Part shown: positions 11,246-13,974 of the stretch, piece after piece
How positions within the stretch are numbered: the first letter of the stretch is position 1
Layout of the letters: each line of letters begins with the position of its first letter
From: a virus
Direction: 5' to 3' (one strand)
UHGV virus genome: UHGV-0349101
DNA length: 27,771 bases
Notes under the pieces: model-generated
Database searches by the model: none
Told to the model about the DNA's origin: nothing
What the model saw: the letters and a program-made list of their open reading frames with translations, nothing else
Program-made: the position numbers and the translations under genes

Positions 11246-11602
11246 ATGCGTGATATGTATGAAGTAATGGATCGTTGGGGAGCTTGGGCTGCTTCAGACA
11301 ATAGCGGAGTGGACTGGCAGCCGATAGCGGCTGGTTTCAAGGGACTTTTACCTCATGGCAAAAAGTCACGGATTCAGTGTGATGATGACGAAGGCATCAT
11401 GATAGACAGTTGTGTGGCTCGGTTGAGAAGGTATAAACCAGAGGAATATGAGCTCATCATCGCCCACTTTGTTATCGGTATCTCATTACGCACTATTGCG
11501 AAGAAGAGAAAATGCTCTGATGGCACAATTAGGAAGGAACTGCAAACTGCAATGGGGTTTGTTGACGGCTGTTTAGCAATGTTAGCTTATAGTATGGCAT
11601 AA
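11246..11602 (+). CDS. quuD: Late-gene antiterminator Q (phage 82 / quuD type)
   Basis: MRDMYEVMDRWGAWAA...WQPIAAGFKGLLP...CDDDEG resembles QuuD/82-Q as recalled; GGAG 8 nt upstream of ATG 11246. Confidence 0.85.
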   Translation: MRDMYEVMDRWGAWAASDNSGVDWQPIAAGFKGLLPHGKKSRIQCDDDEGIMIDSCVARLRRYKPEEYELIIAHFVIGISLRTIAKKRKCSDGTIRKELQTAMGFVDGCLAMLAYSMA

Positions 11603-12796
11603 AAAATAAAATAGATTTACTGCCGATTTTTCAAAAAAGACTGGGAACTGTTTATATCCAACGTAAATAAGGCCTCCATAAAACATGGCTGATGCGAGAT
11701 ATTTAACAGTTCTCATCCTTTTTTTAGCTTTATCAATCAAACCTGTAATGCTACTCTTAATACTATCTGCATTATCTTTGATTTCTTTATTTTCTTCAAA
11801 CTTTAAATACTTATCGAAAGCGGACTCCACTCGAGAACGTAAGTTGTCGAATGTTTCATTGAATATCTCAATAGAAATGTAATTGACTTTTTTTATCATC
11901 CAAAGTCCTGCGATAATCAATATTGCTTCGGTTGTTTCATTAGCCTTCACTAAGCCACCAGCTGCTATTAATGCACCGGGAATAGTCAATGCTTTTGTCT
12001 GATTAGATGATATGAATTCGTTAATTTTACTCGTGAACTCAAGATTTTTCTCATCGAGTTCGTTAAGAATTTTATTTACAGAAAACCTCTTTGTGTAAAT
12101 CTCATATAGTTCATCATATTTTTTCCTGACGAGTTCAGTAGAGTTAAGCAAGTCAAAGAAATTGAACGTACCATTTGCTTTAAATACTTCGTTTATGGCT
12201 GAGCGTATAACGAGCTTGCGCTCGCTTTTGTGTAAATCATTGATTTTTATTGTGTCGAGAAGCTCCTTTATAATTTCATATTTAAGAGACGAGTTCGATA
12301 AGCGATTAATCTCGCTATATTGTAAAAAATGCGTGAGTTCGACTGTATAACTTTTGTCTTCATTGGTGAAAAATAAGACAGAGCAGTCACTGTTATGATG
12401 ATCAGCAATTAATGAAAGGATATCTTTCCACATAAAGAAAATATGGATTTTTTCGATGCTTTCATTCTTAGAAGTAGGGAGTATTAACGGCGTTCCGATG
12501 ATATAATTTTTCGGAAGAGCGTTTTGGGTGTTTACTCTAGACCAAAAAGACTCAACATTCTCATAAATTATAGCATCATCCCAAGATGAAGCTTGGCGAT
12601 CTAGCCAAATTTCATTATTTTCGATGCAGGTTGTTGCCTTTTTATAACCTATAGATTGTAACAGTCTAATTATTTCAGAACTATTTACAATAACAATGCT
12701 TTCTTCAAGACTTATGACAGTGTAGTAGCCCTCAACTCTGCTTGAGGCTCCGTTAATAATCTGCGCTAATCTTGATAAGTCATCAGCAATTGTCAT
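11582..12796 (-). CDS. Hypothetical 404-aa protein with two predicted C-terminal transmembrane helices; distal gene of the Q-holin cargo operon
   Basis: Long AT-rich ORF; hydrophobic segments (TIPGALIAAGGLVKA...AILIIAGLWMI and YLASAMFYGGLIYVGY); ATG lies 2 nt after the upstream gene's stop; 3' end overlaps the 3' end of Q by 21 bp, convergently. Confidence 0.7.
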   Translation of the reverse strand: MTIADDLSRLAQIINGASSRVEGYYTVISLEESIVIVNSSEIIRLLQSIGYKKATTCIENNEIWLDRQASSWDDAIIYENVESFWSRVNTQNALPKNYIIGTPLILPTSKNESIEKIHIFFMWKDILSLIADHHNSDCSVLFFTNEDKSYTVELTHFLQYSEINRLSNSSLKYEIIKELLDTIKINDLHKSERKLVIRSAINEVFKANGTFNFFDLLNSTELVRKKYDELYEIYTKRFSVNKILNELDEKNLEFTSKINEFISSNQTKALTIPGALIAAGGLVKANETTEAILIIAGLWMIKKVNYISIEIFNETFDNLRSRVESAFDKYLKFEENKEIKDNADSIKSSITGLIDKAKKRMRTVKYLASAMFYGGLIYVGYKQFPVFFEKSAVNLFYFLCHTIS

Positions 12797-12798
12797 TA

Positions 12799-13974
12799 TT
12801 AGCTGTCTCTATATCTTTTGAGTTCATCATAATTTGCCTGACTCAATTTTATCACAATTTCGCATTTGTTGTCAGTGAGAATTACAGGCTTATTTGACTT
12901 TTCGTCTCCAATAGCTCCACGCATTATTTTCAACTTAAAATTATTGTCGTTATCTGCCACTTCAATTGTAAGCGCGCTTTCAGCTGCTTTAGGAGTTGGT
13001 TCAAATTGAGGGTCAATCTGGAAACCATTAAGATTAACAAAATCGACAAACGTTCCCTTACATTTGTGTGAATCAGTCAGGCATGAGTCAATTATTTTTG
13101 AAATATCCTCTATCTTAACGGACTTATTTCCGTGTTTATCTTTTGATTTTTTTTCCAGTAAGGATTTAACTTCATTGTCAATAGTATCACGCAGTACACG
13201 ACCGAGTGAGTTTTTACTAGCAAAAATATCTATAGCACTGAATAATTGCTGAATGCTTCTTTTATTGTCCGAATCATGTCGGCAACCTAATGAGTCTTTG
13301 AAAAAATCGCTTTTAGATTTACCTTGCAAGAAATGTACATATGAGTCACCCTTGTTTTCTGGATAACTGGCTTCGAATAAAGTTAAATCGAACATCGCAG
13401 CCTGCCGTAAGGCATCGGTATTAATTGGATTTAATCTTGTTGGGGTCAACTTATCCGAATCAAAGTCATAGGCGCTTTGTTTATCAACCATTACGATTAG
13501 AAGTTTCCCCAAATCCTCTGGTTCGGTAGACTTATAGTGGATGAAAACAACGCTCCCCCCCTGAAGTTGGGCAACTCTCGATTCGTTATTAGCATTATGT
13601 TTAAGCTTCTCTATTATAGCTCTAGATAAATCAATGAATTCATTATTCTTATTAATGTATTTTTTTAGGATCGTAGGAATGGATGAAGGGTTGTGATCTG
13701 AGTCTAGGAAGTTATGAAATTTGTTTTTTCGGCTAAATTTTTTCTCAATTCTGGTTATGAATTCAGATGTGACTTCATTTTTTAGATCCCAAACTTCACC
13801 TAATCGATAATCAAATGCTCTTGAATCATTTTTTTCAAGATTTGCTGTTACAGCACCAATAGGAAAGTACGATTGTTTGCCCAGCACTACAACATGAGGC
13901 GTGGCACCGCATTTATCGCAAGCTACAGTTGGGTCGTCAAGAACATTGCCACATTCTAAACAAGTTATATCCAT
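12799..13974 (-). CDS. Zinc-ribbon plus NdpA/YejK-like (nucleoid-associated protein) domain protein, 391 aa; proximal gene of the cargo operon
   Basis: N-terminal CxxC-x10-CxxC (CLECG...CDKCG); central motifs GGSVVFIHY, INTDALRQAAMFDLT and YVHFLQGKSKSDFFKDSLG parallel E. coli YejK as recalled ([44 protein letters not shown]). Confidence 0.75.
   Translation of the reverse strand: MDITCLECGNVLDDPTVACDKCGATPHVVVLGKQSYFPIGAVTANLEKNDSRAFDYRLGEVWDLKNEVTSEFITRIEKKFSRKNKFHNFLDSDHNPSSIPTILKKYINKNNEFIDLSRAIIEKLKHNANNESRVAQLQGGSVVFIHYKSTEPEDLGKLLIVMVDKQSAYDFDSDKLTPTRLNPINTDALRQAAMFDLTLFEASYPENKGDSYVHFLQGKSKSDFFKDSLGCRHDSDNKRSIQQLFSAIDIFASKNSLGRVLRDTIDNEVKSLLEKKSKDKHGNKSVKIEDISKIIDSCLTDSHKCKGTFVDFVNLNGFQIDPQFEPTPKAAESALTIEVADNDNNFKLKIMRGAIGDEKSNKPVILTDNKCEIVIKLSQANYDELKRYRDS

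Follow-up and report, generated by a model that had tools for sequence, protein, structure and literature searches.

The question raised by this locus is what a two-gene, AT-rich operon is doing between the antiterminator gene Q and the holin gene of a lambdoid prophage, and whether it constitutes a defence system that has already been described. The window comprised the whole 27,771-nucleotide stretch of UHGV virus genome UHGV-0349101, in which the operon occupies positions 11582-13974 of the minus strand. A preliminary description, made from the letters and open reading frames alone, had proposed two opposite-strand genes encoding a nucleic-acid-binding, sensor-like protein and a membrane protein. 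The genes are designated DS-1A and DS-1B, after the published system to which they are assigned below, and the locus contains the following features:

11246..11602, (+): antiterminator Q, left flank (Pfam Phage_antitermQ, E=2.7e-47; RefSeq annotation)
11582..12796, (-): DS-1B gene, 404 aa, putative membrane effector (ORF; phrog_5023, E=2e-158)
12794..12801, (-): A-B gene junction, with TAA stop at 12799-12801, 2-nt TA spacer and ATG start at 12794-12796 (direct sequence read)
12799..13974, (-): DS-1A gene, 391 aa, encoding a zinc ribbon joined to a YejK/NA37 nucleoid-associated domain
14000..14027, (-): candidate sigma-70 promoter, TTGATA-16-AAAAAT (consensus scan, 9/12 matches)
14092..14123, (+): terminator-like hairpin and T-run between DS-1A and the holin gene, AAACCCGCCATCGAGCGGGTTT then TGTCGTTTCT, 8 pairs
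14266..14592, (+): lambda-family S-type holin, right flank (Pfam Phage_holin_3_1, E=5.7e-25; RefSeq "phage holin, lambda family")

The ORF list, Pfam matches and RefSeq annotation place the operon as an insertion between Q and the holin gene of a DLP12-type lambdoid prophage. Both ORFs (13974..12799 for the 391-aa DS-1A and 12796..11582 for the 404-aa DS-1B) begin with ATG and agree with the RefSeq gene models on the same DNA. The GC content is 34.9% in the operon and 49.3% and 48.5% in the flanks, which bears out the proposed AT-rich pair on the opposite strand, and the junction corresponds to the 2-nt gap from which translational coupling had been suggested. At the other end of the operon, the 3' ends of Q and DS-1B overlap convergently by 21 nt, as calculated from their coordinates. 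The insert lies in the slot occupied by nmpC in K-12, in keeping with the proposal that the Q-S gap is a cargo hotspot. DS-1 occupies the Q-holin slot of this lambdoid prophage as a moron. The promoter is a weak candidate, as the total number of matches in the scan was not above that in shuffled sequence, and its function is suggested solely by the activity of DS-1 from its native upstream region in E. coli MG1655. The plus-strand hairpin is a candidate tR'-type terminator of the late operon, lying outside DS-1; an Rfam scan of the region returned nothing meaningful, and the hairpin had no Rfam match. A search of the operon with blastn against 50,697 phage records likewise gave no match. A BstA-like gene is also present in the same prophage.

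The protein sequences establish the identity of the operon, which is the published and named defence system DS-1 (working ID D390), reported with DefensePredictor by DeWeirdt, Mahoney & Laub (bioRxiv 10.1101/2025.01.08.631726, January 2025; Science, April 2026, PMC13092281); as such it is already known and no new system. DS-1A was identical to WP_000355468.1 of DeWeirdt Table S8 at 391/391 residues, and DS-1B matched WP_000150292.1 at every one of the 399 residues that the table gives for it. The two accessions are annotated side by side by RefSeq on identical DNA, and both the interval 11582-13974 and the DS-1 unit in Table S6 measure 2,393 bp. The cloned copy came from another E. coli assembly (NZ_RRVY01000002.1), with the same gene order and no sequence differences (PMC13092281). 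In addition, DS-1A matched NCBIfam NF053868 (DS1_1_antiphage; 451.4 bits against a cutoff of 330, E=2.1e-135) and DS-1B matched NF053869 (DS1_2_antiphage; 375.2 bits against a cutoff of 315, E=2.8e-112), which are equivalog models made for the DS-1 pair; newer RefSeq annotations label gene B "anti-phage protein". The preliminary description had not recognised the pair as any described defence system, and in this respect it was mistaken. Neither protein was matched by PADLOC v2 (2023), a null that says nothing on novelty because the library is older than DS-1. Reading of the sequence alone had flagged a genuine defence system at a moron site of a prophage, in an operon already published, named and represented in NCBI models; this is a correct call and not a discovery, since an earlier study had cloned and named this exact pair and demonstrated that it blocks phages.

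The phage-resistance phenotype anticipated in the preliminary description is published for the identical operon. E. coli MG1655 carrying the two-gene unit under its native promoter on a low-copy plasmid was protected against T1-like, T5-like and T7-like phages, with -log EOP values in Table S7 of 7.6 for Bas1, 2.7 for Bas26, 1.7 for Bas3, 1.7 for T3, 1.0 for T5 and 0.9 for T7 (PMC13092281). Restriction of Bas1 was full, with plaques absent, and most other phages showed small plaques or 10-500-fold effects (Table S7, PMC13092281). Table S7 was also checked for D390 replicate or T4 rows, and only seven rows were found, T4 being absent.

DS-1A was analysed by profile, sequence and fold searches and with an AlphaFold2 (AF2) model (pLDDT 87.2, pTM 0.83), which delimited two parts:

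13909..13962, (-): CxxC-x10-CxxC zinc ribbon, DS-1A codons 5-22 (CLEC-x10-CDKC, motif CLECGNVLDDPTVACDKC)
12847..13785, (-): NA37/YejK domain, DS-1A residues 64-376 (Pfam PF04245)

The similarity to NdpA/YejK, for which formal alignment had been named as the check, was recovered by Pfam NA37 (PF04245; E=1.2e-23, 84.5 bits against a cutoff of 24.6, residues 64-376), by phmmer against PDB YejK 9be2_A (E=1.2e-9, residues 64-324) and by Foldseek against the PDB, in which 9be2 was the sole significant match (E=1.7e-14, probability 1.00, TM 0.43-0.49). The motifs LRQAAMFDLTLF and GKSKSDFFK..LGC were invariant or nearly so in 47 homologues. The zinc ribbon, likewise present as first read, scored only below threshold with Pfam zinc-ribbon models (E=0.07), and its AF2 pLDDT was only 65-70; HHpred placed it as NinF-like at 86% probability (DeWeirdt Table S5, PMC13092281). 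Its four cysteines occupied aligned positions in 21 of the 47 close homologues and were found in none of the 53 NA37 partners of a distant subfamily, and Pseudomonas-type homologues carry an acidic tail instead of the ribbon while keeping the pairing with B. By its distribution among these sequences, the predicted ribbon is a clade-specific accessory of DS-1A.

For DS-1B, hydropathy and an AF2 model (pLDDT 84.8; helices at 271-284, 288-331, 337-383 and 385-403) delimited three regions:

12302..12796, (-): acidic alpha/beta N-terminal domain, DS-1B residues 1-165 (AF2 secondary structure)
11882..11992, (-): conserved hydrophobic helical hairpin, DS-1B residues 269-305 (hydropathy; ALTIPGALIAAGGLVK-ANETTE-AILIIAGLWMI)
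11597..11707, (-): C-terminal hydrophobic segments, DS-1B residues 364-400 (hydropathy windows 366-381 and 386-400, preceded by the basic KAKKRMRTVK)

The fold searches with DS-1B showed no specific effector fold, Foldseek against BFVD giving nothing significant; Pfam gave no domain, alarmone synthetase included, and the PDB sequence search gave no match. The N-terminal region has a net charge of -8 to -9 and a pI of 4.8, and it is net negative in about 97-99% of 87 B-family members, an acidity without discriminating value because the A family is acidic too. On the model, residues 1-165 are a candidate partner-binding, "DMK"-like region. DS-1B had been read as ending in two transmembrane helices. 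The C-terminal segments at 366-381 and 386-400 agree with that reading, and the hydrophobic character there is kept across the B alignment, but they are not the only such elements, as the hairpin at 269-305 and an amphipathic helix at about 306-363 were also found. The hairpin is the most conserved part of the B family, and P273 is the sole invariant residue besides the initiator Met among 47 very diverse members; its two hydrophobic stretches, of about 15 and about 11 residues, are shorter than would be expected of genuine membrane spans. Hydropathy and the AF2 model together predict a C-terminal membrane region made up of the hydrophobic helices at 269-305 and 366-400.

Homologues that do not co-occur and that sit in non-mobile housekeeping contexts had been named beforehand as evidence against a defence role; in the survey the homologues always co-occurred, in mobile or defence contexts. 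An NA37 gene lay directly upstream of B on the same strand at 12/12 genomic loci and at 51/51 metagenomic loci, the latter from a subfamily 17-19% identical to B, in which 50 of 53 A-B pairs overlapped or were spaced by <=10 nt. This absolute NA37-B pairing in the surveyed loci is new from the present analysis, as are the size of the B family, the clade restriction of the zinc ribbon and the BstA-like gene of the prophage. The B family comprises about 777 representatives with one architecture, and no fused variants (Pag1B-like/toxSAS) were present in the best 150 of these ~777 by profile search. Some homologues occur in non-prophage islands, adjoining AbiE, BstA and helicase genes. A scan of viral contigs with one subgroup returned no relatives. 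The absolute pairing, the ~777-member B family, the hairpin with its one proline and the clade-restricted ribbon are constraints for work on the mechanism.

For DS-1, DeWeirdt and colleagues gave the phenotype and the label "YejK domain" and no mechanism, their mutagenesis having been carried out on other DS systems (PMC13092281). YejK itself is a non-sequence-specific DNA clamp (PMC11229321), and a precedent for its use in defence is provided by type II PANGU of E. coli (bioRxiv 10.64898/2026.04.06.716658). There, the YejK-like, chromosome-bound nucleoid-associated protein (NAP) Pag2A is freed when the phage degrades host DNA and activates the transmembrane Pag2B; the NAP moves off the nucleoid upon T4 infection, it binds the acidic domain of the effector with a KD of 19 nM, and escape mutants map to denA, the host-DNA nuclease gene. 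Both genes are needed, neither construct is toxic, and the phenotype is abortive infection (bioRxiv 10.64898/2026.04.06.716658).

By analogy, we favour, at a probability of about 0.6, a reading of DS-1 as a moron in which a YejK-type clamp senses the loss of host DNA and switches on a membrane effector, giving abortive infection. In the lysogen, DS-1 would be driven by its own promoter, and DS-1A would rest on the host chromosome as a clamp, as in type II PANGU. Degradation of host DNA by an infecting phage would release DS-1A, and the free protein would bind DS-1B at its acidic, cytoplasmic N-terminal part; the conserved hydrophobic hairpin and C-terminal helix would anchor DS-1B in the inner membrane. 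Activated DS-1B would then damage or depolarise the membrane, so that phage growth would no longer be supported. The N-terminal zinc ribbon would be a clade-specific add-on, possibly tuning the binding of DNA or partner. Among the phage groups restricted, T7 degrades host DNA. T1 and T5 do so too (bioRxiv 10.64898/2026.04.06.716658). The published phenotype and the PANGU architecture support the preliminary proposal of a sensor-like protein and a membrane protein that together defend against phages, abortive infection being the probable mode.

Complete restriction of Bas1, at a -log EOP of 7.6 and without plaques, is typical of direct immunity, and it could instead reflect a direct block of phage DNA, in which B tethers the clamp A at the inner membrane, incoming linear DNA is captured or occluded, and entry or early replication is excluded while the host survives. 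The slow, stepwise injection of the T5, T3 and T7 genomes and the predicted membrane association of B (hydropathy, AF2 model) would suit such a block, and clamps of the YejK type take any DNA (PMC11229321). We nevertheless judge it unlikely: most other DS-1 phenotypes are of the small-plaque or 10-500-fold kind common in abortive systems, no feature of A points to discrimination between phage and host DNA, and type II PANGU arrests growth at high MOI, its NAP leaving the nucleoid and not heading toward the entry site. A role in serving the prophage itself, such as a xenogeneic nucleoid protein and a membrane partner tuning prophage expression or the timing of lysis, resistance being incidental to expression from the plasmid, would fit the adjacency of the operon to Q and the lysis cassette and the standing of NA37 proteins as classical nucleoid proteins. 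It is very improbable given that defence was seen outside any prophage, with the unit on a low-copy plasmid under its native promoter (PMC13092281), that homologues occur in the non-prophage islands mentioned above, and that the module is strictly conserved across hundreds of contexts.

The trigger might also differ from that of PANGU within a PANGU-like architecture, DS-1A sensing a phage protein or a DNA structure (free ends, replication intermediates) through its zinc ribbon and then activating B. PANGU-Ecu acts on T4 but spares T1 and T5 (bioRxiv 10.64898/2026.04.06.716658), whereas DS-1 restricts T1-, T5- and T7-like phages and has no T4 entry, although host DNA is degraded by each of T1, T5 and T4; moreover, the confinement of the ribbon to the DS-1 clade (21/47 against 0/53) is as expected of a specificity module. 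Against this, the ribbon is poorly modelled, Pseudomonas-type homologues have an acidic tail in its place yet are still paired with B, and the differing spectra could be accounted for by expression levels, DS-1 having been tested under its native promoter and PANGU-Ecu under IPTG induction. Such a trigger is accordingly considered improbable. More tentatively than the favoured reading, DS-1 may be a separate lineage of NAP plus membrane effector distinct from PANGU-Ecu, its ribbon retuning the sensor to T1-, T5- or T7-type events (host DNA broken down in another way, or the ends of incoming DNA) and the universally conserved hydrophobic hairpin of B, too short for a membrane span, serving as a latent pore-forming element inserted only once A has bound. 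Sensing of host-DNA loss by the clamp, followed by activation of the membrane effector, is retained as the preferred explanation.

Among known proteins, E. coli YejK (NdpA; 9be2) shares the Pfam family NA37 and its fold with DS-1A, at about 19% identity. The GKSKSDFF motif of DS-1A aligns with the YejK R176/K177 region that was mutated in a DNA-binding study (PMC11229321). Of the residues R173/R176/K177 and R276/R280/K284 of the electropositive pore in the dimeric YejK clamp, R176 aligns with K219 of DS-1A, R173 has no counterpart because of a 3-residue deletion, and the alignment does not extend to the second triad; K221 and K226 of DS-1A are largely conserved. YejK is a housekeeping gene, whereas DS-1A has the extra zinc ribbon, is encoded by a mobile, AT-rich gene and invariably occurs with B. 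Assignment of DS-1A as a housekeeping YejK orthologue was considered and rejected: with NF001557 it scored 81.4 bits, and because this is below the YejK equivalog cutoff of 341, DS-1A is regarded as a paralogous, mobile NA37 protein and not YejK itself.

Type I PANGU (Pag1A NAP and GRel toxSAS Pag1B) resembles DS-1 in its YejK-like sensor, its partner being activated via an acidic "DNA-mimic" domain, but the type I effector is a soluble alarmone synthetase and DS-1B has no such domain. Lambda RexAB is a two-gene abortive system of a prophage, whose DNA-related sensor in the cytoplasm switches on a depolarising membrane protein; no sequence or family relationship between RexAB and DS-1 was detected, and PADLOC, which covers known systems, gave no match. 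In its architecture, type II PANGU (Pag2A and Pag2B) is like DS-1 in being bicistronic, with the gene for a YejK-like NAP first and, second, that for an effector with an acidic N-terminus and a C-terminal membrane region. The word "zinc" has 0 occurrences in the PANGU preprint (bioRxiv 10.64898/2026.04.06.716658). As with DS-1, type II PANGU is found in E. coli and is linked to defence loci.

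The two genes occupy exactly the positions claimed for them in the preliminary description, and their placement between the Q antiterminator gene and the holin gene was supported by profile matches to both neighbours, as listed below.

13974..12799, minus strand: gene A (DS-1A), open reading frame with ATG start, 391 aa
12796..11582, minus strand: gene B (DS-1B), open reading frame with ATG start, 404 aa
11246-11602, plus strand: Q antiterminator (Phage_antitermQ, E=2.7e-47)
14266-14592, plus strand: S-family holin (E=5.7e-25)
14092-14123, plus strand: strong terminator-like hairpin, AAACCCGCCATCGAGCGGGTTT followed by a T-run, between the DS-1A start and the holin

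The reported AT-richness of the operon was borne out (34.9% GC, against 49.3% and 48.5% in the adjoining DNA), as was the 2-nt spacer, the junction reading TAA (stop of A), TA, ATG (start of B). Beyond the holin, the window contains a lysozyme ORF, Rz and a Rha gene. The plus-strand Q gene and minus-strand gene B overlap convergently at their 3' ends by 21 nt (window 11582-11602), so that read-through from Q would run antisense into DS-1B. The hairpin may be a tR'-type terminator of the late operon; this would put the late promoter to the holin side of the cargo, with DS-1 inserted between Q and pR'. No promoter was identified with confidence.

The earlier reading of the pair as a defence system proved sound, but the pair, which was not recognised there as any described system, has been published. 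In NCBIfam release 20, A matched NF053868 ('DS1_1_antiphage, nucleoid-associated anti-phage protein'; 451 bits, equivalog cutoff 330) and B matched NF053869 ('DS1_2_antiphage'; 375 bits, equivalog cutoff 315). The name originates from the 'DefensePredictor' study of DeWeirdt, Mahoney & Laub (bioRxiv January 2025; Science April 2026), Table S6 of which lists DS-1 (working ID D390) as a 2,393-bp unit, NZ_RRVY01000002.1:220602-222994, encoding WP_000355468.1 (nucleoid-associated, 391 aa) and WP_000150292.1 (hypothetical, 404 aa). This span equals the length of window 11582-13974. Protein A is identical to the sequence printed in Table S8 at 391/391 residues and protein B across all 399 residues printed, and in RefSeq both accessions are adjacent on DNA identical to the window operon. 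On the strength of these family matches, the span and the sequence identities, the pair was assigned as DS-1 itself, a defence operon, with a probability of about 0.97; it is already known and is not a new system. Newer RefSeq records, e.g. E. coli NZ_OZ547033.1, label B 'anti-phage protein'. The remaining value lies in the question of the DS-1 mechanism and in the constraints upon it, namely absolute pairing, family size, the hairpin of B with its invariant proline, and a clade-restricted zinc ribbon.

The zinc ribbon described at the N-terminus of A is CLEC-x10-CDKC (residues 5-22), and the proposed likeness to NdpA/YejK withstood formal profile and structure comparison. A matched Pfam NA37 with E=1.2e-23, well over the gathering score, and its confident AF2 model (pLDDT 87.2, pTM 0.83) gave E. 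coli YejK 9be2 as the sole significant Foldseek match in the PDB (E=1.7e-14, probability 1.00, 19% identity), which was also recovered by sequence search of the PDB (E=1.2e-9). YejK forms a dimeric clamp that binds DNA without sequence specificity and has an electropositive pore (PMC11229321). Assignment of A as YejK proper was ruled out, as it scored 81 bits against an equivalog cutoff of 341. Across 47 aligned A homologues, the NA37 core motifs LRQAAMFDLTLF and GKSKSDFFK..LGC were invariant or nearly so. The ribbon was present in only 21 of these 47, with an acidic tail in its place in Pseudomonas-type homologues, and in 0/53 NA37 partners of a distant subfamily; it is a clade-specific accessory.

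Protein B, the putative membrane effector, had no match in Pfam, PADLOC or the PDB sequences and matched phrog_5023, a PHROG entry without assigned function. Its AF2 model (pLDDT 84.8) comprises four regions.

Residues 1-165: alpha/beta domain (AF2 model)
Up to residue 268: helical region (AF2 model)
Residues 269-305: conserved hydrophobic hairpin, helix 271-284 and next helix from 288 (AF2 model, hydropathy)
After the hairpin: long C-terminal helices (AF2 model)

The alpha/beta domain (1-165) is acidic (net -9, pI 4.8), and the C-terminal third beyond the hairpin consists of an amphipathic helix followed by hydrophobic segments 366-381 and 386-400. B had been said to end in two transmembrane helices: the C-terminal hydrophobic helices are present, and the hairpin and the amphipathic helix must be added to that picture. 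Fold searches returned generic helical bundles only; likenesses to CorA-type and ClyA folds recurred and were discarded as too unspecific for use. When 1.84 billion representatives were searched with a profile, 777 family members passed E ≤ 1e-3 and 372 passed E ≤ 1e-10. As nearly all are 380-450 aa long, with matches spanning most of each protein, the family has one architecture. Conservation is highest at FSxxK…E(I/V)…K…SxxQxKxLxIP together with the ~13 hydrophobic residues, brief polar turn and further hydrophobic helix that come after it. Besides the initiator Met, P273 is the sole residue invariant among 47 very diverse members.

The neighbourhood survey proposed earlier showed that A–B pairing is absolute. 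An A homologue immediately preceded B in the same orientation at 12/12 species-representative genomic loci from the B-profile search (of which one is truncated by a contig end and another is decayed) and at 51/51 metagenomic loci whose upstream DNA extended for at least 1 kb, these belonging to a subfamily that shares only 17-19% identity with DS-1B. Pairs of the distant subfamily overlapped or were ≤10 nt apart in 50 of 53 cases. The contexts are mobile or defence-related: the Serratia marcescens homologue adjoins a BstA_C gene (L016 10423-11334) and recombinases, and that of Pseudoteredinibacter shares an integrase island with AbiEii/DUF6088, an AAA_21/AAA_15 ATPase and a ResIII helicase. 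In a Pseudescherichia vulneris prophage the homologue is likewise found between Q and holin, beside HicAB; as this toxin-antitoxin pair (HicA/HicB, L014 6920-7557) shares the slot, the hotspot stacks several cargo modules. In Photorhabdus viridis (L013 7651-8948), A is detectable only at residues 5-125 and B lies in three frames or pieces, so this is probably a pseudogene pair.

Within E. coli, at least 80% of a 2.9-kb query (the operon plus short flanks) was found in 106 of 5,426 complete genomes. The operon also occurs in three plasmid records, each with a Q gene beside it, and in none of the sequenced phage records. The view of the Q–S gap as a cargo hotspot is confirmed by K-12, in which nmpC occupies the equivalent DLP12 slot, between quuD and essD, on the same strand. 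An IS1 transposase divides the nucleoid-associated gene of NZ_OZ547033.1 into two annotated pieces, and an IS3 element lies inside the DS-1 locus of NZ_CP097170.1, beside a duplicated Q annotation; both insertions look like natural DS-1 knock-outs.

A second defence gene seems to accompany DS-1 in this prophage, since a 314-aa ORF ('hypothetical' in RefSeq) matches phrog_6287, 'BstA abortive infection system, replication inhibitor' (E=1.9e-136); it had no match in Pfam or NCBIfam. It belongs to a second AT-rich cargo stretch (window 5828-9560, 37.4% GC).

Within 5828-9560: emrE (NF042984, 240 bits)
6471-7997: ybcK-type serine recombinase
8109-8426: 105-aa protein like the Ant C-terminus
8616-9560, plus strand: BstA-like ORF

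The best E. coli genome match agrees with the window at 99.5% only across 3259-15185, with 1-3258 and 15186-27771 outside. Where that genome has iss/bor, downstream of Rz, a Rha/ORF11CD3 gene (15783-16394) stands in the window, and the two also differ in their structural genes. The prophage is mosaic relative to this genome, which is typical lambdoid mosaicism.

In the DefensePredictor assay, DS-1 with its native upstream region was introduced into MG1655 on a low-copy plasmid, and 24 phages were tested against it, with the following outcome (Table S7).

Bas1: -log EOP 7.6; smaller plaques, no (no plaques)
Bas26: -log EOP 2.7; smaller plaques, yes
Bas3: -log EOP 1.7; smaller plaques, yes
T3: -log EOP 1.7; smaller plaques, yes
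T5: -log EOP 1.0; smaller plaques, no
T7: -log EOP 0.9; smaller plaques, yes
SECphi27: -log EOP about 0; smaller plaques, yes

Bas01 is a T1-like phage of the Drexlerviridae, Bas03 one of 13 serially numbered Drexlerviridae isolates, and Bas26 a T5-like phage of the Markadamsvirinae. In the main text there is only the statement that a role in defence had been newly validated for a YejK nucleoid-associated domain; mutants were made of DS-2, 3, 5, 6, 8, 9 and 11, DS-1 not being among them, and no DS-1 mechanism is given.

An analogy is provided by PANGU, which pairs a YejK-like nucleoid-associated protein (NAP) with an effector (April 2026 preprint, 10.64898/2026.04.06.716658). In type II, the NAP Pag2A accompanies Pag2B, whose N-terminal domain is acidic and 'DNA-mimicking' and whose C-terminal part is a TM region (10.64898/2026.04.06.716658). 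The operon tested, PANGU-Ecu, came from an E. coli UPEC strain, required both genes, was toxic in neither construct and protected abortively, T4 escaping through mutations in denA (EndoII); its Pag2A bound the acidic domain with a KD of 19 nM and, when GFP-tagged, departed from the nucleoid upon infection (10.64898/2026.04.06.716658). As DS-1 resembles type II in described architecture, we infer a similar logic. DS-1A would be a clamp seated on the host chromosome, phage-driven loss of host DNA would release it, and the released protein would bind the acidic cytoplasmic region of DS-1B, which would then damage the membrane and abort the infection. By analogy, we hold such a PANGU-like mechanism to be somewhat better than an even bet.

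The slow-injecting target phages T5, T3 and T7, together with the complete block of Bas1, would fit a membrane-tethered clamp that directly excludes incoming DNA, but the abortive PANGU data speak against such exclusion, which we regard as unlikely. We give similarly little weight to a PANGU-like architecture answering to another trigger, read by the zinc ribbon. A role in prophage physiology, with defence as a side effect, is less probable still, as DS-1 is active outside a prophage and homologues are found in non-prophage defence-island contexts.

The favoured PANGU-like mechanism has to accommodate a difference in spectrum: PANGU-Ecu is without T1 or T5 restriction, whereas DS-1 restricts T1-like and T5-like phages, T4 not being among the Table S7 entries; expression levels were unlike between the two studies. 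In described architecture, DS-1 and type II PANGU are alike: the gene of a YejK-like protein is followed by that of a partner with an acidic N-terminal region and putative C-terminal membrane helices.
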